Assembly (NCBI GenBank): GCA_964478595.1 | Contig: CAYZIN010000004.1 | Location: 557-64,556 of the forward strand | Direction of reading: 5' to 3' | DNA length: 64,000 nucleotides | From: an uncultured Candidatus Saccharibacteria bacterium | GTDB lineage: Bacteria > Patescibacteriota > Saccharimonadia > UBA4664 > CAZJNH01 | In this document: piece after piece, positions 10,573 to 64,000 of the stretch | How the letters are laid out: each line of letters starts with the position of its first letter | Position numbering within the stretch: position 1 is the first letter of the stretch | The notes under the pieces: model-generated | Seen by the model: only the letters and a program-made list of their open reading frames with translations | Databases searched by the model: none | What the model was told of the DNA's origin: nothing | Made by a program: the position numbers and the translations under genes

Positions 10573-10573
<1 letters not shown>
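8021..10573 (-). CDS. gyrA: DNA gyrase subunit A
   Basis: Full-length GyrA. Motifs include AAMRYTE-like GKYHPHGD and the active-site Tyr region. The ATG at 10573 overlaps the gyrB TGA by 1 nt; the tool start at 10576 is a TTG. Confidence 0.95.
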
Positions 10574-12648
<2,075 letters not shown>

Positions 12649-12786
12649 TCAAAAAAAATTGACGCCTCAACGCCCTTCATCACGATCAATTATAGCTTAT
12701 CTCGGAGAAAAAGCCAAGCATTATGGCAATATTTCCAATCTATTTACTCCTGGATTTGCTGAAGCATAAGTGGTTTAATTAGGGCA

Positions 12787-18065: not shown

Positions 18066-20930
18066 TTAACGGATTTCGGCTTTGAATTTGGTCTTGAGGG
18101 CGTTCGAGATTTTACTTAAGCGATCTTCAACCTCGGCATCGGTCAAAGTTTTGGCAGAATCGGACATGACTAGCCGAAAAGCTACCGATTTTTTGCCGGC
18201 AGGAATACCTTGGCCCGAAAACTCACTTAAGTAAGTTGCTTCGGCTAGATCCTCGTCAATCGCCTCGGCCACGTCTTGCCAGCTAGTTTTTTGATTAACC
18301 ACAATCGACAAATCACGTTTAGCGGCGGGAAATTTGCTTACCGGTCGGTAATTTGGTCCCTCGGCTGCAGAGGTTATGGCCAGCAAATCGACCTCCAGAT
18401 AAGCCACCGTCCCCTTAATTTTGAATTCAGTCACCACATCGGGATGAACCTCACCAATCCAACCAATCTCCTTGCCTGAAAGTAAAAGCTTAGCCGCCCG
18501 ACCAGGATGCAGGCCAGCGGTTTTGGCTGGTTCAATCTTTACACCAACCTTAAACTCCCGGACCAGCCGATCGAGTGCCGCTTTAACGCTTGCGTAGGGA
18601 TTATCCGCTTTGGCAATGGCGGCGATTTTCGTTGGTTCAGACGGCAACTTTTTGGGCTGAGTGGGTAGGTAAACCTTCGAGACCTCAAACAAAGATAGCT
18701 CGGGGGCGTAAGTTTGATTTTTACCCAGAGCATTGAGCAAACTCGGCAGGAGCGTGGTGCGCAAATAGGCTTGCTCGATCGACATTGGATTGCGGACTTT
18801 GAGATGTTCTCCTAACTTGCAGCCCGAACGAGTAATGTCATCCGCCGACACAAAGGAATAGGTCATCACTTCAAACATTCCCAAAGCCTTCATTGCTTCC
18901 TGAGCCTTCCATAAATTTGGCCAATACTGGTCAAACTCAACTTCGCTAGGCTGCCAGGCCGGTAATTTGGCGGGGACCTTGTCATACCCCGTTAGCCGAG
19001 CAATTTCTTCAATCAAATCTTCCTCGGTCTTTAGATCGGTCCGCCACCACGGCGCCGTCACCGCCACATAATCATCCAGGTTCTCTACGTGCCGCCGCGC
19101 GCCAATGTAGCCAGGATTCTTGATATAAACCTCAACATCGACCACCTGCACCTTTCGATCACGAATCGGCAACTCTACCCACTTAGCATCCCTATACTCA
19201 TAGCGACGAGCGTCGATAACTTTGCCATTACCAATATAAATTCCGTCATGGCCAACCAGACCCTTGTAAGCAGTTTCAAGCTTTTCGTACTGTCCGGTTT
19301 GAGCATTCTTTCTATAGTAATAACCCACAGTTGAACTTGGTTGTTTCGATGACTTTTCCGATTGGATTTCGGCCAAAGTATATTCGCCTTTGCCTCCAGT
19401 TTTAATACCTTCATAAAACAAAATGTCACCGGGACTTAGCTCACCCGTGTGCACCGGCCGGCCAGTTTCTAGCTGAGCCGGGGCGGTGTGCCCAACCCAG
19501 AGGCCGATTAACGAGAAAACATAATCAATAAGGTAGCCGCAATCGAAAGCTTCGATTCCGTTCTTCTTGAAACTGGCCCCCCAAACGTATGGTTTTCCAA
19601 GGTGTTTTTTGGTTTCGGCCACGACGTCAAACGGTTCAGCTTCCAGGCCGGAGCGGTGCAGCAATTTAGTAATCTCCTCGCGGGAAATTTTGTACCCCAA
19701 AAACTGCTCTAGCCGGCTGGAGCGAATGCCGATATGTTGAATCCACGGCCAAACCAGCAACTCGTCGGCTACGGCAGAGGTAACCTTAGCTTTAGCGTAC
19801 TTGCTTAAATAATCTAGTGCCCGAGCCAATGCAATCGGCGCCAGTTGTACCGGCAAGTTTCGCTCGAACCGCCCACTGGCATCGGTCCGGTTGCCATGAC
19901 GAATGGCGGTTTTACGAATGGTGGGTGCGTCAAAGCTGGCGCTTTCTAAAATAATTTTGGTTGTCTTGTCGGTAATCTCGCTACCGGCACCACCCATCAC
20001 CCCCGCCAAGGCGATCGGCCCGGAGGAGTTGGCAATGACGACATCTTCGGTAGTTAATTTACGGGTTTGCCCGTCTAGGGTTACCAATTTCTCGCCAGAC
20101 CCAGCATGTCGCACAACAATACTTCCCCTCACTTTCGCCGCGTCGAAAGCGTGCAGCGGCTGGCCGTATTCCAACATTACATAATTGGTTATATCAACGA
20201 CGACACTAATCGGCCGCAAACCTGAAGCCAGCAATCGGCGCTGCATCCAATCGGGGGTTTTTTGGTTCGGCTCGATAGATAACTCAACAGCCATATAGCG
20301 CCGAGTCTTAGTCGATTTATCGACTTTAACCTTTGGAGCAGCCCCTTTCTCGGGTAATTGATGCTCGATCGGTTCGTGCACCTTCTCGCCCATGAACGCG
20401 GCTGCTTCCCGCGCCAACCCTATAACCGACAATAAATCCGGTCGATTGGCGGGCGTATAGACATCGATAATCGCCGACTCAGGCCAGATTTCGGCCACCG
20501 GTTGGCCGACCCTAGCACTTGGTTCTAAAACTAAAATACCCGAGTGATCATCGCCTAAACCTAATTCCTGAGCACTTGCAATCATCCCGGCCGACTCAAT
20601 CCCCCGAATCGTGGCTTTTTCGATCTTTAAACCTGTTGGCAAAGTCACTCCAGGGGCTACATAAGCCACCTTTTGACCCTCCGAAACGTTCGCGGCTCCA
20701 CAGACAACCGAAATTTTGCCTTCGCCAAGGGATAATTCGACAATTTTTAATTTATCGGCGTTTGGATGCTGAATAACTTTTTTGACATCTGCTACTACGA
20801 CATGATTGTCTAGTTTGGGTGTATAAATTATTTGTTCTATTTCAACGCCGATTTGCTCCAAAGCATCCGCAATCGTTTTTGGATCGTGCTTGCCAATATA
20901 TTCTGCCAACCATTCGGCACTAACTTTCAT
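18066..20930 (-). CDS. pheT: Phenylalanine--tRNA ligase beta subunit with a large insertion containing NlpC/P60-like and B3/B4 domains
   Basis: tRNA-binding N-terminus, B5 domain, and C-terminal FDX-ACB-like domain. Start overlaps the pheS stop. Confidence 0.9.
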   Translation of the reverse strand: MKVSAEWLAEYIGKHDPKTIADALEQIGVEIEQIIYTPKLDNHVVVADVKKVIQHPNADKLKIVELSLGEGKISVVCGAANVSEGQKVAYVAPGVTLPTGLKIEKATIRGIESAGMIASAQELGLGDDHSGILVLEPSARVGQPVAEIWPESAIIDVYTPANRPDLLSVIGLAREAAAFMGEKVHEPIEHQLPEKGAAPKVKVDKSTKTRRYMAVELSIEPNQKTPDWMQRRLLASGLRPISVVVDITNYVMLEYGQPLHAFDAAKVRGSIVVRHAGSGEKLVTLDGQTRKLTTEDVVIANSSGPIALAGVMGGAGSEITDKTTKIILESASFDAPTIRKTAIRHGNRTDASGRFERNLPVQLAPIALARALDYLSKYAKAKVTSAVADELLVWPWIQHIGIRSSRLEQFLGYKISREEITKLLHRSGLEAEPFDVVAETKKHLGKPYVWGASFKKNGIEAFDCGYLIDYVFSLIGLWVGHTAPAQLETGRPVHTGELSPGDILFYEGIKTGGKGEYTLAEIQSEKSSKQPSSTVGYYYRKNAQTGQYEKLETAYKGLVGHDGIYIGNGKVIDARRYEYRDAKWVELPIRDRKVQVVDVEVYIKNPGYIGARRHVENLDDYVAVTAPWWRTDLKTEEDLIEEIARLTGYDKVPAKLPAWQPSEVEFDQYWPNLWKAQEAMKALGMFEVMTYSFVSADDITRSGCKLGEHLKVRNPMSIEQAYLRTTLLPSLLNALGKNQTYAPELSLFEVSKVYLPTQPKKLPSEPTKIAAIAKADNPYASVKAALDRLVREFKVGVKIEPAKTAGLHPGRAAKLLLSGKEIGWIGEVHPDVVTEFKIKGTVAYLEVDLLAITSAAEGPNYRPVSKFPAAKRDLSIVVNQKTSWQDVAEAIDEDLAEATYLSEFSGQGIPAGKKSVAFRLVMSDSAKTLTDAEVEDRLSKISNALKTKFKAEIR

Positions 20931-22311: not shown

Positions 22312-22320
22312 CTGTCTAGA

Positions 22321-22359
22321 TTATAACGGATCGGCTACCTTGAAACTATAACCATAAGC
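22321..22359. repeat. 39-nt exact direct repeat, copy 1 (ttataacggatcggctaccttgaaactataaccataagc)
   Basis: Identical to 22426..22464. Contains the core GAAACTATAACCATAAGC. Confidence 0.85.
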
Positions 22360-22425
22360 CGAACGGCTTCAAGCTTCTTTCCAATCCGTTGAAAGCTTCC
22401 CTTTATTTAAAGACGAGGAAGAAGC

Positions 22426-22464
22426 TTATAACGGATCGGCTACCTTGAAACTATAACCATAAGC
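22426..22464. repeat. 39-nt exact direct repeat, copy 2
   Basis: Identical to 22321..22359, 105 nt downstream of it. Confidence 0.85.
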
Positions 22465-22478
22465 TCAAACGGCTGAAA

Positions 22479-24303: not shown

Positions 24304-24627
24304 CTACTTCTGAGCGTAAATCAGGCTGTGCCCAGCCTTGAACTCTGGTGCCGCCGGGTCCCCTCTTTGGAGCCCCAAGCCTGGCAGCTTGGCCGAGTGA
24401 TCGGTCAACCCTTTCGGGATATGCTGCTCGACCTCGGGCACATTGGCGCTCGACGTAAGCGCCGCCAGTTTGGTCGCACCGGTGGAAACCGGTCTTACTG
24501 CTGCGGGAGCGGCTTGGCTGGTCATCTCATGACCTGGTCCGCAATTTGCCGCAACCTTGCCACCTGTTGCCAGGACGGCCATGGCCGCGCCGGCTACTGC
24601 CACCCTGGCTACCAGTTTGGCTTGCAC
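24304..24627 (-). CDS. Possible small Ala-rich secreted protein (about 107 aa) with a GTG start
   Basis: AAGGGAGG lies 5 nt upstream of the GTG at 24627. Signal-peptide-like start MQAKLVARVAVAGAAMAVLATGG. The longer tool ORF (start 24687) would begin inside the terminator region. Confidence 0.3.
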   Translation of the reverse strand: MQAKLVARVAVAGAAMAVLATGGKVAANCGPGHEMTSQAAPAAVRPVSTGATKLAALTSSANVPEVEQHIPKGLTDHSAKLPGLGLQRGDPAAPEFKAGHSLIYAQK

Positions 24628-24710
24628 TACCACCTCCCTTGAGGTTGGAAATACCGAAACTACAGGAAGCATATCGTACGCCCACACCTGTAACCCGTCA
24701 AGGATTCAAC

Positions 24711-24736
24711 AAAAAAATCCCGAACAAAATCGGGAT
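24711..24736 (-). terminator. Strong rho-independent terminator on the minus strand
   Basis: Stem ATCCCGA / TCGGGAT, loop of 6 nt, followed on the minus strand by a 7-U tract (plus-strand aaaaaaa at 24711-24717). Confidence 0.75.
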
Positions 24737-25080
24737 ACGTTAACGGGGCGACTAGATCCGCCCATTATTTTGAAAATATGGCGCCTGTCGCCCCGTAGAC
24801 GGTTCCTACACCGAGTGGGCGTAGAAGCCGTAGAAAGAGCTCCAGCTTAAGGTGATGCTCGCATAACGACCCTCCGTTTACCTTAAAAGGCTGGCAATGC
24901 AGCCCCCACCACTGTGTGGCCGACCGGAGACCCGGACGCCGACTACCCCAGTGGGGTGAGTCCGAATTAGATATAAGGGGGATACATCTAATCCGGGCTG
25001 ACCCCACCGCCTGTGGAAGCTGATGTTTTATCGAGGAGAGACCCCGATGTTTTGGTTTTTAAAGAACCGAACATAACCAC
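24737..25080 (-). ncRNA. Candidate structured non-coding RNA (about 340 nt, GC-rich, nested hairpins). Identity unresolved; tmRNA or RNase P RNA are the candidates to test.
   Basis: There is no credible ORF. The only ORFs (24765..25007 and the plus ones) are low-complexity. Numerous GC-rich hairpins, e.g. GGGGCGAC...GTCGCCCC, CCGAATTAGAT...ATCTAATCCGG and CAGCCCGGA...UCCGGGUC. The region is bounded by the trpS stop and the strong terminator. Confidence 0.3.
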
Positions 25081-25084
25081 TTTA

Positions 25085-25140
25085 GCATAAGCTTTATGGT
25101 TGTGTCAAGACTCCTATGGTTGTAGTTTCTACATCGTTAC
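25085..25140 (-). repeat. Two adjacent copies of the ACCATA(A)AGC motif in minus orientation (GTAGAAACTACAACCATAGG and ACACAACCATAAAGCTTATGC), between the trpS stop and the candidate ncRNA
   Basis: 18/22 identity to the core of the 22321/22426 repeat. Contains a TCTTGACA -35-like octamer. Confidence 0.4.
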
Positions 25141-25150
25141 TTCGAGAGGG

Positions 25151-26137
25151 TTACAAAATTCCGACAGCTTTTTTTACCTCTTCCAGTTTTGGTTCAGCAA
25201 TCGCGTTGGCTTTTTCCCTACCCTGATCCAATACTTTCGCTAAGTGATCGGGGTCTTTGGTTATCTGATTAAAACTTTCTTGCAGCTTTAAGACATCAGC
25301 CGAGATTAAATCAGCTAAATCATGTTTGAAATTGCTATAACCCTGGCCTTCATACTCTTTTTCCAAAGTTTTAATAGTTTTCCCAGAAGCCGACGAGTAA
25401 ATAGTGAGTAAGTTTGAAATTGCGGGTTTGTCCGGCGAAAACTCTACATTATTGCCCGAATCTGTTACCGCCCCTTTAACTTTGTCTTCAATCACTTGTG
25501 GCGTATCGGACAATAGGATATTGCCCGAGTCGTCATCGTCGGATTTGCTCATCTTCTCATTTGGATTCTGCAGATTCATGATTCGGGTACCAGTTTCAGC
25601 CAAGGTTGCCACCGGCAATTTAAAGATGTTGCCGTAAAGCTTATTGAACCGGTCGGCGATATCCCTGGTCAGCTCTACATGTTGGCGCTGATCGTCTCCT
25701 ACCGGCACTTCATCGGGGCTGTAAAGCAAAATGTCAGCTGCCATCAACACTGGGTAATCGAATAATCCGACTAACTGGCCCTCTGATCCTATCTTGCGGG
25801 ATTTGTCCTTAAACTGCGTCATTCGAGATAACTCGCCCATGGTAACGTAATTATTCAGAATCCAGGCTAACTCCGAGTGAGCCGGAACGTGGGATTGCAT
25901 GAAAATAACAGCCTTATCCGGATCGATCCCGGCCGCCAGCAGCCAAGCAACGGCGTTTAGGCTGGCCTGTTGCAAAAATACCGGTTCAGGACGAACCGTT
26001 AAAGCATGAAGGTTAGGCACAAAATAGAAATTCTCCGTTTTGTCTTGGTCGGTCGCCCAATGCTTCATCGCACCAAGATAATTACCTAGAGTTGGTGTCT
26101 GGCTGGTCGGCTTTAATCCGGAGAGCAACCGCTTCAC
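25151..26137 (-). CDS. trpS: Tryptophan--tRNA ligase
   Basis: Class I aaRS. HIGH-like region and KMSKS (EKMSKSDDD) present. Confidence 0.95.
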   Translation of the reverse strand: MKRLLSGLKPTSQTPTLGNYLGAMKHWATDQDKTENFYFVPNLHALTVRPEPVFLQQASLNAVAWLLAAGIDPDKAVIFMQSHVPAHSELAWILNNYVTMGELSRMTQFKDKSRKIGSEGQLVGLFDYPVLMAADILLYSPDEVPVGDDQRQHVELTRDIADRFNKLYGNIFKLPVATLAETGTRIMNLQNPNEKMSKSDDDDSGNILLSDTPQVIEDKVKGAVTDSGNNVEFSPDKPAISNLLTIYSSASGKTIKTLEKEYEGQGYSNFKHDLADLISADVLKLQESFNQITKDPDHLAKVLDQGREKANAIAEPKLEEVKKAVGIL

Positions 26138-29692: not shown

Positions 29693-29768
29693 TGGTCGGG
29701 GTGGCGGGACTCGAACCCACGGCCTCACGCACCCGAAGCGTGCGCGCTACCAACTGCGCCACACCCCG
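29693..29768 (-). tRNA. tRNA-Pro (anticodon CGG), CCA encoded
   Basis: Manual cloverleaf: acceptor CGGGGTG/CACCCCG, D-arm GCGC-AGTTGGTA-GCGC, anticodon stem CACGC/GCGTG with loop TTCGGGT (anticodon CGG, G37), T-arm GTGGG-TTCGAGT-CCCGC, discriminator A then CCA. The plus-strand ORF 29675..30004 overlaps it and is spurious. Confidence 0.85.
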
Positions 29769-45498: not shown

Positions 45499-45882
45499 TT
45501 AATGAACTAACTCGGCGAAACGCCGAAGCAAATTCTCGATCCGTTTCACCTGCTCGTCAAGGCGAACCTGCTCATGACCAACGCCGCCGCCATTTCTTAG
45601 GGTTGTGGCCGTCAGGGTCATCCTCGAGAGATCACTGCTCAGCTGAGACTCGGCTTCACCCTTGCTCTTCACTTCGACATCGATGAAGTGCTGCAACTCA
45701 AGCGCTCGCTCGAGCAGGTCGACGCTACCGTGCACGGCTGTGTAGTACTTACTTCCACTTTCCAATCGGCCGATCACACGCTTAAAGCAATCTCGATCAG
45801 CTTCAAGGTGCTTGCGTACGTTCTCGTCGAGCTGTTTCGGCATGGGGCCTTCGGCCGGCATCCATTCGGGTCGATCGCTCAC
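45499..45882 (-). CDS. Hypothetical protein (127 aa), second gene of a two-gene GC-rich operon
   Basis: AAAGGAGA RBS. A hairpin lies downstream at about 45455..45485. Confidence 0.5.
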   Translation of the reverse strand: MSDRPEWMPAEGPMPKQLDENVRKHLEADRDCFKRVIGRLESGSKYYTAVHGSVDLLERALELQHFIDVEVKSKGEAESQLSSDLSRMTLTATTLRNGGGVGHEQVRLDEQVKRIENLLRRFAELVH

Positions 45883-46139: not shown

Positions 46140-46171
46140 AAAAGCACCCGAACCGTAGTTCTGGTGCTTTT
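46140..46171. terminator. Bidirectional hairpin AAAAGCACC...GGTGCTTTT
   Basis: 9-bp stem flanked by A-runs and T-runs on both sides. Confidence 0.45.
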
Positions 46172-46725
46172 GGTGGAGCTGCGGGGAATTGCACCCCGGT
46201 CCGCGAGATAACGCTTCAGGCTACTACAGGCTTAGTCCGTTTGATTTGTTTCTTTTCCAAACCGCCACACAAGCGAACAAAGATAGCGATTCGGAGCAGC
46301 CCAAATCTTAGCGACGAGTTAGGGCAAGCTCATCGAGCAACCAACTAAATGGCGCCGGATTAACCTAGTTGGCGTCGGTTAAAAGGCGGCTTTCGAACTT
46401 AAGCGAAAGCGGGTACTAAATCGTTGCGAGTTAGTAAGGTTGCCTATAACGCTGGCAAGCGGCCTGCAACACTGAAGTGTCAAAGTCCCACGTCGAAGCT
46501 GATCAGCCCCTCATCGTCGCAGCTACCTCCAGCTTACGCAAGATTTGCTTGCTGCAGCTTACCGGTGCTGCTCCTCTCGGCTCGTCAAACAGTCGTTTCA
46601 CTCCTTCGGATTGACTCGCCGGGAATCACATTGAGCTCGAGTATTCTAGCAAAATATTGTGGATTTTTCAACGCCGCCGGTGTAGAATACCGGCGCGTTA
46701 TTCGAACGAGTACCAAGGAGAGAAA

Positions 46726-47205
46726 ATGATTCCGACAACCGCCAGTGAGATCATCAACCGTGCCCATCTGATCATCAGCGCCGAGCCGCCGATCTATTCG
46801 AACTGGATACTGGAAGGGCCCAAGAACAATCCAGCTACACCGCTTGCCGTGGCCGCTGCCGACATCGACGATATCGGTTGCGCCGTGTACCAGTTGGCAG
46901 TTGTGAGTGACAAGATCGATGCTCTTGCGGTCCGCCGCAAGATACTTGGCTATGAAGTCCCGGTCGCGGCCACTCAAGCGCAAGTCGGGCTCGACAGACT
47001 CTGGGACCACAACCCCGAGTTCTATCCGGCCTTCGTCGCCGCCAGGGCCGCCAGGGCTAACATGCCGCTGATGCTGATCGCCTTCACGCTTGATGCAAAC
47101 GACGAGCTCATTGCGATCCTCTATCACCCCATCGACGTACCCACTTCTTTCGCGATCGATACGTTCAAGGACTTGATAGCCGGTACCATCGCTCTCCACA
47201 ACTAG
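46726..47205 (+). CDS. Hypothetical protein (159 aa)
   Basis: AAGGAGAG RBS 3 nt upstream of the ATG at 46726; the tool start at 46657 is an extension. The antisense ORF 46585..47199 is rejected as Arg/Asp-rich. Confidence 0.5.
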   Translation: MIPTTASEIINRAHLIISAEPPIYSNWILEGPKNNPATPLAVAAADIDDIGCAVYQLAVVSDKIDALAVRRKILGYEVPVAATQAQVGLDRLWDHNPEFYPAFVAARAARANMPLMLIAFTLDANDELIAILYHPIDVPTSFAIDTFKDLIAGTIALHN

Positions 47206-63838: not shown

Positions 63839-64000
63839 CGTTGTAACGCTTATTGTACATCTTTAGAAAAACCCCGCCCTAAAGCGAGGTTCTTCTTATG
63901 CCAGGCTGCCTGTAAGCCGGATTCTGTCTAGAATGGCTATCTATCTAGGCCAGCTGTTACCAACTGGCTCAAGCGGCTATCGTTGACCGTAGCGAGCAGC

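Follow-up and report, generated by a model that had tools for sequence, protein, structure and literature searches.

A candidate new family of structured RNA encoded directly after trpS in Saccharimonadia-like bacteria

What is encoded between the end of trpS and the intrinsic terminator that follows it, in a region with no credible open reading frame (ORF)? The question is raised by a 64,000-nucleotide stretch of DNA from an uncultured Candidatus Saccharibacteria bacterium (contig CAYZIN010000004.1), which we call the window. An earlier note on the window, made from its letters alone, proposed that the region hosts a housekeeping RNA, and named tmRNA, RNase P RNA and 6S RNA as candidates. Our analyses lead us to a different answer. 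We hold with considerable confidence that positions 24710-25073 of the minus strand are a real, new and standalone structured RNA gene of about 360 nt (360-480 nt over the copies found in relatives). A fuller statement, in which the RNA also acts in trans through a C-rich loop, is made tentatively, and we place rather less than even trust in it as a whole.

The candidate gene has transcription signals of its own. The trpS ORF spans 25151-26137 on the minus strand, with its stop at 25151 as the earlier note had it, and is followed by a near-consensus promoter of the sigma-70 type (10/12 matches, with the extended -10 TG present). A TTGACA-like element had been pointed out upstream of the region; it is real (25108-25103), and TTGACA and GCTTATGCTAAACT are near-invariant in the promoters of the homologs described below. 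With a conserved promoter standing between the end of trpS and the RNA, it is unlikely that the region is simply a long 3′ untranslated region of trpS. The spacing of the promoter predicts a transcription start at about 25073, which would give an RNA of about 364 nt. At the far end the terminator has the 7-bp stem and the seven U described previously, although only four of the seven pairs are G-C and the stem is not all-GC as had been implied. Promoter and terminator are both on the minus strand, and folding of the sense strand exceeds that of the antisense strand in stability by 17 kcal/mol. Taken together with the fold and the covariation described below, these signals give good support to the general part of the earlier reading, a structured and independently terminated non-coding RNA gene.

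The fold itself is unusually stable. The transcript 24710-25073 (minus) folds at -156.0 kcal/mol, compared with -116.4 +/- 6.0 kcal/mol for dinucleotide shuffles (z = -6.66), and 0 of 100 shuffles are as stable, which bears out the earlier description of the region as structured. Its description as GC-rich is also correct, with a GC content of 0.53-0.57 within the element and 0.39-0.43 in the adjoining 3′ part of trpS (25100-25499). Divergent homologs fold more strongly still, with z-scores of -10.66 (L099) and -9.72 (L093); L numbers are our labels for contigs, those of the relatives having been fetched by TrpS identity (61-78%). The copies share a plan: the promoter, a variable leader, a long-range helix P1 that closes a junction with P2 and the one or two variable hairpins of P3 inside it, a variable region of one or two hairpins (P4/P5), P6 as the conserved hairpin on the 3′ side and, in most copies, a terminator. 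Five or six separate helices make up the consensus fold, which branches and leaves the two ends of the RNA unpaired.

How widely is this RNA distributed? The closest named relatives of the window's TrpS are metagenome-assembled genomes of 'Candidatus Saccharimonadia', and a scan of the species-genome collection with TrpS returned only relatives from other phyla, at 50% identity or less. Among the 61-78% identical relatives the gene order RmuC, trpS, a gap of 540-950 nt, a 124-aa membrane protein, pheS and pheT is kept. At least nine more contig lineages, all from Saccharimonadia-like bacteria, have a copy of the RNA directly after trpS, with TrpS identity going down to 61%. Runs in the Logan collection that contain close relatives are SRR9179562, SRR13838932 and SRR21686403. 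The nhmmer matches to the candidate include L081 (E = 4e-58) and L085 (E = 2e-54). Copies are also present in L086, L088, L089, L093 and L094, as partial copies in L084, L090 and L091, and in the 'mainstream' group L099-L106, which stands at 61% TrpS identity. A match in the metagenome contig L087 was set aside as a chance match.

A covariance model (CM), R1, was built from the four closest copies, the window copy among them. It scores the window at 321.9 bits, as a training member, and seven other loci at 50-340 bits; its independent matches are L088 (115 bits), L086 (94), L094 (61) and L093 (50), and the L099 group is matched over P2 only (40.7 bits). Full-length matches were found only in the Saccharimonadia-like loci sampled. 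In 80 trpS loci from other phyla the model gave no match adjoining trpS, and one weak match (L068, E = 0.005) is probably false. By these nhmmer and CM scores the conservation is far above chance.

The structure is conserved as well as the sequence. P1, P2 and P6 are each maintained by compensatory substitutions. Covariation was counted over 9 sequences for P2, 10 for P6 and 9 for P1, with slid registers and 500 shuffles as controls, and for none of the three helices did any of the 500 shuffles reach the observed score. In P2, 92.6% of cells are paired (27-46% in slid controls) and 8 pairs have changed on both sides; in P6 the figures are 95.1% (40-50%) and 6 pairs. For P1, 74.6% of cells are paired (34-54%) and 10 of 14 pairs have changed on both sides, a count that leans towards structure since the P1 strands, which MAFFT and the first CM had mis-registered, were registered by hand.

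Sequence constraint is distributed very unevenly over these parts. P2 consists of 25-27 bp across the copies, and its stem changes while the apical loop with its closing pairs, UAUCCCCCUUA, is invariant in 9 lineages; this C-rich heptaloop at the tip of P2 is under the strictest sequence constraint in the RNA. The consensus of P6 over the copies is ACGGGGCGAC-ARG-CGCC...GGCG-ga-UYU-a-GUCGCCCCGU, with a core of ACGGGGYGRC..GYCRCCCCGU, and the bulges on its 3′ side are conserved. P3 cannot be aligned between lineages, although a hairpin is always present there. The pairs of P5 that have changed on both sides are 302-325, 306-321, 309-318 and 310-317. In the leader, the second hairpin is missing in L081, and both hairpins differ in L086, L088, L093 and L099.

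Does the C-rich loop pair within the RNA itself? A pseudoknot between the CCCCC loop and the GGGGG tract was considered and rejected. The G-rich tract AUGGUGGGGGUUG has become GGUAGUGAU in L093, where it pairs with AUCACUACU, and GGUAAGCGGAG in L099, where it pairs with CUCGCUUGCC, with the loop the same in both. The tract and its partner in the 5′ strand of P1 change together while the loop is unchanged, which identifies the tract as the 3′ strand of P1. Neither a pseudoknot nor tertiary covariation was detected in the RNA.

Table 1. Features of the candidate RNA gene and its boundaries, in window coordinates
Feature	Coordinates	Strand	Remarks
Inverted repeat TGTAGAAACTACA	25121..25133	minus	Directly follows the trpS stop; 12 nt before the -35 box
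Promoter	25079..25108	minus	-35 TTGACA 25108-25103; 18-nt spacer; extended -10 TGcTAAAGT 25087-25079
5′ leader	25023..25073	minus	Two small, poorly conserved hairpins GGUUCUUUAAAAACC, CGGGGUCUCUCCUCG; from the fold
P1, 5′ strand CAGCUUCCAC	25013..25022	minus	Pairs with 24909-24900 in the minimum free energy fold; covariation
P2 hairpin	24949..25009	minus	25 bp with two 1x1 mismatches; covariation; apical loop UCCCCCU 24982-24976 within UAUCCCCCUUA
P3 variable hairpin region	24913..24948	minus	A single hairpin in the window; relatives have one or two longer ones
P1, 3′ strand GUGGGGGCUG	24900..24909	minus	Inside the conserved G-rich tract AUGGUGGGGGUUG
P4 hairpin CCAGC..UAAGGU..ACCUUA..GCUGG	24842..24894	minus	Kept only among the closest relatives
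P5 hairpin ACGG-CUUCUACGCC..GGUGUAGGAA-CCGU	24799..24831	minus	Compensatory changes among close relatives
P6 3′ hairpin ACGGGGCGAC-AGG-CGCC..GGCG-ga-UCU-a-GUCGCCCCGU	24743..24796	minus	AU-rich loop; covariation
Intrinsic terminator AUCCCGA-uuuugu-UCGGGAU + seven U	24710..24736	minus	Stem 24736-24717, 6-nt loop, seven T 24716-24710
Next promoter-like site TTGACG-17-TACGAT	24673..24701	minus	Boundary marker outside the RNA; serves the downstream 127-aa ORF

The window copy has all the features by which we would recognise the family (Table 1): the promoter, P1 enclosing P3 and a P2 that carries UAUCCCCCUUA, P6, and a site right after trpS. At gathering thresholds Rfam has no match to the candidate, and a search of 24600-25250 at E <= 10 gives only noise (all E > 2). 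The tmRNA, RNase P, 6S, SRP, T-box and 6C families gave no match at E <= 10 in the candidate or in the divergent homolog L099. We classify it as a new RNA family, one that belongs to no Rfam family and was detected only in the sampled Saccharimonadia-like loci, that is, in Patescibacteria, or the Candidate Phyla Radiation (CPR).

What might such an RNA do? On the sequence comparisons we favour a standalone, trans-acting RNA over a leader of the downstream genes. The 3′ tail of 16S rRNA is CCUCCUUA, and the P2 loop with its flank, CCCCCUUA, resembles it. In the mechanism that we propose, the RNA would act in trans, and the invariant C-rich loop, at the tip of the long and rigid P2 arm, would be its recognition site, most likely pairing with a G-rich sequence. 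The likeliest partners would be mRNA regions of the Shine-Dalgarno (SD) type, where pairing would block the access of ribosomes in the manner of the C-rich loops of 6C and RsaE/RoxS, and P1 and P6 may provide a stable scaffold or a protein-binding platform. There are precedents for pairing of this kind: RsaE/RoxS and the UCCC-motif small RNAs (sRNAs) of Firmicutes have unpaired C-rich motifs that mimic the anti-SD sequence and occlude ribosome-binding sites. The C-rich loops of 6C pair with G-rich mRNA sites without a chaperone (PMC6486639).

Predicted pairing of the loop is stronger at the initiation regions of the window than within its genes, with a mean of -6.2 kcal/mol compared with -2.3 intragenic and -7.5 for a generic anti-SD sequence, and with 21% of initiation regions at -9 kcal/mol or below compared with 2.3% of intragenic sites; the starts used for these figures were chosen by SD strength. 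The strongest predicted site is the SD region of gyrB, UUUGAGGGGGAAAC (12636-12660 minus; gyrB 10573-12633), with 9 complementary nucleotides and -16.5 kcal/mol, the best of 47 genes.

Several points weigh against this proposal. The enrichment at initiation regions is weak and partly circular, given how the starts were chosen, and any C-rich oligomer would show the same. A plain motif scan of the window for loop targets stays at chance level, and one strong site in 47 genes could well arise by chance. With 360-480 nt and several conserved domains the RNA is far larger than the C-loop riboregulators known so far, a hint that it may have another or a further role, such as that of a ribonucleoprotein (RNP) scaffold or a ribozyme. 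The family comparison draws on only about 10 distinct sequences, and the hand registration of P1 belongs here too. The RNA is also variable in its occurrence. L096/L097 have a degenerate variant that keeps P1 and P6 and has a P2 without the CCCCC loop (L096 3900-4230). In L098 (1400-1800) the RNA is missing at the syntenic site, with no gap between trpS and a 125-aa ORF, and L092 (1842-2031; TrpS 74% identical) has a -10-like box followed by a different sequence that ends in UGUGGGGCGA at the contig end. Since it is missing in L098 and looks different in L092, the RNA is not universally required.

Two other readings we regard as possible and well short of probable. According to one, the RNA represents a new, Saccharimonadia/CPR-specific class of large structured RNA, of which it would be the founding member, with a function other than simple antisense regulation. 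It may then be an anti-SD or 16S 3′-tail mimic that globally tunes translation, or titrates a factor binding to the 3′ end of 16S rRNA, in these episymbionts with their reduced ribosomes. It might also form the RNA core of an RNP or a ribozyme.

The other reading, of about the same standing, takes it as the RNA scaffold or catalytic core of an unrecognised RNP, in the manner of OLE, raiA and ROOL, and not as a base-pairing regulator, with the loop and the P6 bulges making protein or tertiary contacts. Its size and multi-domain conservation make such an RNP-scaffold or ribozyme role a serious rival. A large RNA (360-480 nt) whose conserved cores P1, P2 and P6 are separated by freely variable hairpins would suit such a role, as would the very low folding z-scores and the conserved bulges on the 3′ side of P6. 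So would its presence in very small genomes with little non-coding DNA; the TM7x genome, for example, is 94% coding (10.1101/2022.03.25.485537). However, no protein gene travels with the RNA, its neighbours being RmuC, TrpS, PheS/T or unrelated inserted genes. The junction sequences are not conserved, the RNA is absent or altered in the close relatives L098, L092 and L096, and the one pseudoknot that was considered, between loop and G-tract, is contradicted by L093 and L099.

Could the RNA instead be a leader, a riboswitch- or T-box-like attenuator that governs read-through into the membrane-protein-pheS-pheT operon in cis? Its position invites the idea. In L085, L093, L094, L096 and L099 the next unit after the RNA is the operon of the 124-aa ORF, pheS and pheT, and the RNA's intrinsic terminator stands 40-60 nt in front of that ORF; operons of aminoacyl-tRNA synthetases are classic targets of T-box control and attenuation. 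A T-box has a stem I with a specifier loop and a T-box antiterminator that competes with the terminator, and controls an aminoacyl-tRNA synthetase gene in cis. Here we find no T-box (RF00230) or riboswitch match at E <= 10 and no conserved antiterminator or other alternative pairing of the terminator, and P6 is paired in 95% of cells. The terminators that follow P6 are unrelated in sequence between copies, both where terminator scans find them (L085, L093) and where they were read from sequences and folds (L081, L086, L088, L094, L099). L089, the copy closest to that of the window and nearly identical to it over the core, has no intrinsic terminator after P6. Each of the four loci checked (the window, L085, L093 and L094) has a promoter-like site with an extended -10 between the terminator and the next gene, so that the downstream genes have promoter-like sites of their own. 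In the window, L081 and L086, unrelated genes are inserted between the RNA and the pheST operon, and the RNA is fully conserved there. Because of these promoter-like sites, the inserted genes, the L089 copy without a terminator and the lack of a conserved antiterminator, the standalone RNA is favoured and control in cis appears improbable.

That the RNA is a highly diverged housekeeping RNA (RNase P, tmRNA, 6S or SRP), which is close to what the earlier note proposed, now looks very improbable indeed. Its size would suit RNase P or tmRNA, and no SRP or 6S RNA was detected anywhere within the 64-kb window. However, the Rfam models at gathering thresholds (Infernal, whole window) place a one-piece tmRNA elsewhere, at 46171-46510 (minus, 104.9 bits), along with a tRNA at 29696-29768 (minus). 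A permissive scan of the whole window adds a class A RNase P RNA, present by its 3′ third, at 63897-64000 (minus; model positions 250-367, 60.5 bits, E = 6e-16); this rnpB piece is cut by the right end of the window, and falls below the Rfam gathering score only because of that truncation. The permissive scan was made because RNase P RNAs of the CPR can fall below the Rfam thresholds, those of 10 of 35 closed CPR genomes being too diverged for them (PMC8172020). For tmRNA and RNase P the housekeeping reading is thus refuted. ARAGORN, run on the window, reports only tRNA-Pro(CGG) at 29693-29768; it misses the tmRNA at 46171-46510 and finds nothing at the candidate. SmpB, which the earlier note places in the window, was not found among the 33 window ORFs scanned with Pfam, and several ORFs that adjoin the tmRNA (45499-45882 and 46585-47199) had no Pfam match; with the tmRNA itself located, the point has lost its weight for the candidate.

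The topology of the candidate is, moreover, wrong for all four families. tmRNA (RF00023) has an acceptor stem formed by the 5′ and 3′ ends, a T-arm, a 3′ CCA, a tag reading frame and pseudoknots, and the candidate has unpaired ends and neither a T-arm nor a 3′ CCA. Class A RNase P RNA (RF00010) has a P1 that joins the ends and a long-range P4 formed by CR-I (GGAAAGUCC...) and CR-V (ACAGAA..GGCUUA). Both of the CCCGG strands that the earlier note had likened to this pairing exist. One of them forms the 5′ side of P2, a local and covarying hairpin, in place of a long-range P4; the second, a CCGGG, lies in the non-conserved P3. 6S RNA (RF00013) is a rod of ~180 nt with a closing stem of its ends, a large central bubble and a terminal arm, unlike the branched and open-ended fold found here. 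SRP RNA (RF00169/RF01854) has a helix 8 that is capped by a GNRA tetraloop and binds Ffh through conserved internal loops, symmetric and asymmetric. The candidate has no GNRA-capped helix 8; the P2 loop is a 7-nt UCCCCCU and not a GNRA, and the two 1x1 mismatches of P2 are not conserved, being paired in L099.

The least probable reading of all, a small-protein gene or else a non-functional conserved spacer or pseudogene, could appeal to stop-free sense-strand frames of 45-117 codons, but even among close relatives these change their phase and position, helices show paired substitutions on their two strands, the promoter is conserved, and the 80-aa ORF of the region has no Pfam match. The ORFs of the region are short, rich in arginine, cysteine and tryptophan, and not conserved, and translated similarity between homologs is confined to patches of 16-30 residues at P2 and P6, where it turns up in more than one frame and on either strand. 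The coding reading was rejected on these grounds, and the earlier statement that no credible ORF is present stands.

Some features around the gene deserve mention. Equivalents of the inverted repeat that precedes the promoter, TGTA..TACA or, in L096, TTATTGT..ACAATAA, occur at the same place in L081, L084, L085, L086 and L096; judged by sequence and position, the repeat TGTAGAAACTACA is possibly an operator, that is, a binding site for a regulator, or else a 3′ hairpin of trpS. In L089 transcription may run on from the RNA into a downstream small ORF (about 520-575 minus). The motif ACCATAAGC, to which the earlier note had drawn attention just upstream of the region, was rejected as part of the RNA element: its other copies (22351, 22456) are part of a promoter-like repeat that is duplicated upstream of pheS and unrelated to the RNA. 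That repeat is a tandem duplication of a promoter-like unit of ~40 nt (GCTTATGGTTATAGTTTCAAGGTAGCCGATCCGTTATAA) at about 22320-22470 (minus), upstream of the 124-aa ORF-pheS operon. Further along, the beta subunit of phenylalanyl-tRNA synthetase (954 aa, 18066-20930 minus) has an inserted domain resembling NlpC/P60 peptidases at residues about 445-510; the insertion is shared with the relatives L081 and L086 and absent from the 776-aa PheT of L099. An origin of the RNA in a mobile element, phage or plasmid was also rejected, as blastn gave no match in phage and plasmid collections and none in viral contigs, and no repeats or transposase lie near the RNA locus.

CPR/Patescibacteria account for a large share of bacterial diversity, and their genomes are tiny (about 1 Mb) and contain very little DNA that is non-coding. 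To our knowledge, essentially no regulatory RNAs have been characterised in them. An RNA of 360-480 nt with a strong promoter, a covarying fold and an invariant loop, retained in lineages whose TrpS is only about 60% identical, is therefore likely to have an important role in these organisms. Some Saccharibacteria can now be cultivated and are genetically tractable, and the RNA described here offers a testable entry point into RNA-based regulation in this group. We found no description of it in the searchable literature on Saccharibacteria, the CPR and the discovery of non-coding RNAs; a preprint on the TM7x transcriptome states that there are 'no currently validated small RNAs' in that organism. 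The locus also illustrates that long intergenic gaps of the CPR, here the 540-950 nt between trpS and pheS, can conceal RNA genes that are missed by every current annotation pipeline.

How does the candidate compare with known systems? Class A RNase P RNA is similar in length and in its GC-rich CCGG helices, and its CPR versions can be very diverged (PMC8172020), but the candidate has no P1 joining the ends, no P4 pseudoknot and neither CR-I nor CR-V. T-box leaders share the neighbourhood of an aminoacyl-tRNA synthetase and the ending in a terminator; the candidate differs in having no specifier loop, T-box sequence, antiterminator or Rfam match, and in the unrelated genes inserted downstream of it in three lineages.

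The proposed mechanism is closest to that of 6C RNA (RF01066; B11 of M. tuberculosis), which is likewise transcribed on its own, ends in a terminator and has a conserved run of C in a hairpin loop. The likeness is confined to the mechanism. 6C is an actinobacterial RNA of about 60-100 nt with two C-rich loops, whereas the candidate, which does not match the 6C model at E <= 10, is 4-6 times longer (360-480 nt) and has one such loop, on an arm of 25-27 bp, in addition to P1 and P3-P6. RsaE/RoxS also resemble it in their C-rich motif; they are about 100 nt long with repeated C-rich regions, and no sequence or structure match to them was found. If the C-loop mechanism is true, the candidate would count among the C-rich-loop riboregulators as a multi-domain variant of much greater size.

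A further comparison is with OLE, raiA, ROOL and GOLLD. The candidate has no homology to these RNAs (no Rfam matches), is smaller than OLE, ROOL and GOLLD, and comes from another clade, the CPR. It is like them in being long, multi-helix and supported by covariation, in combining conserved cores with variable peripheral helices, and in being restricted to one clade.

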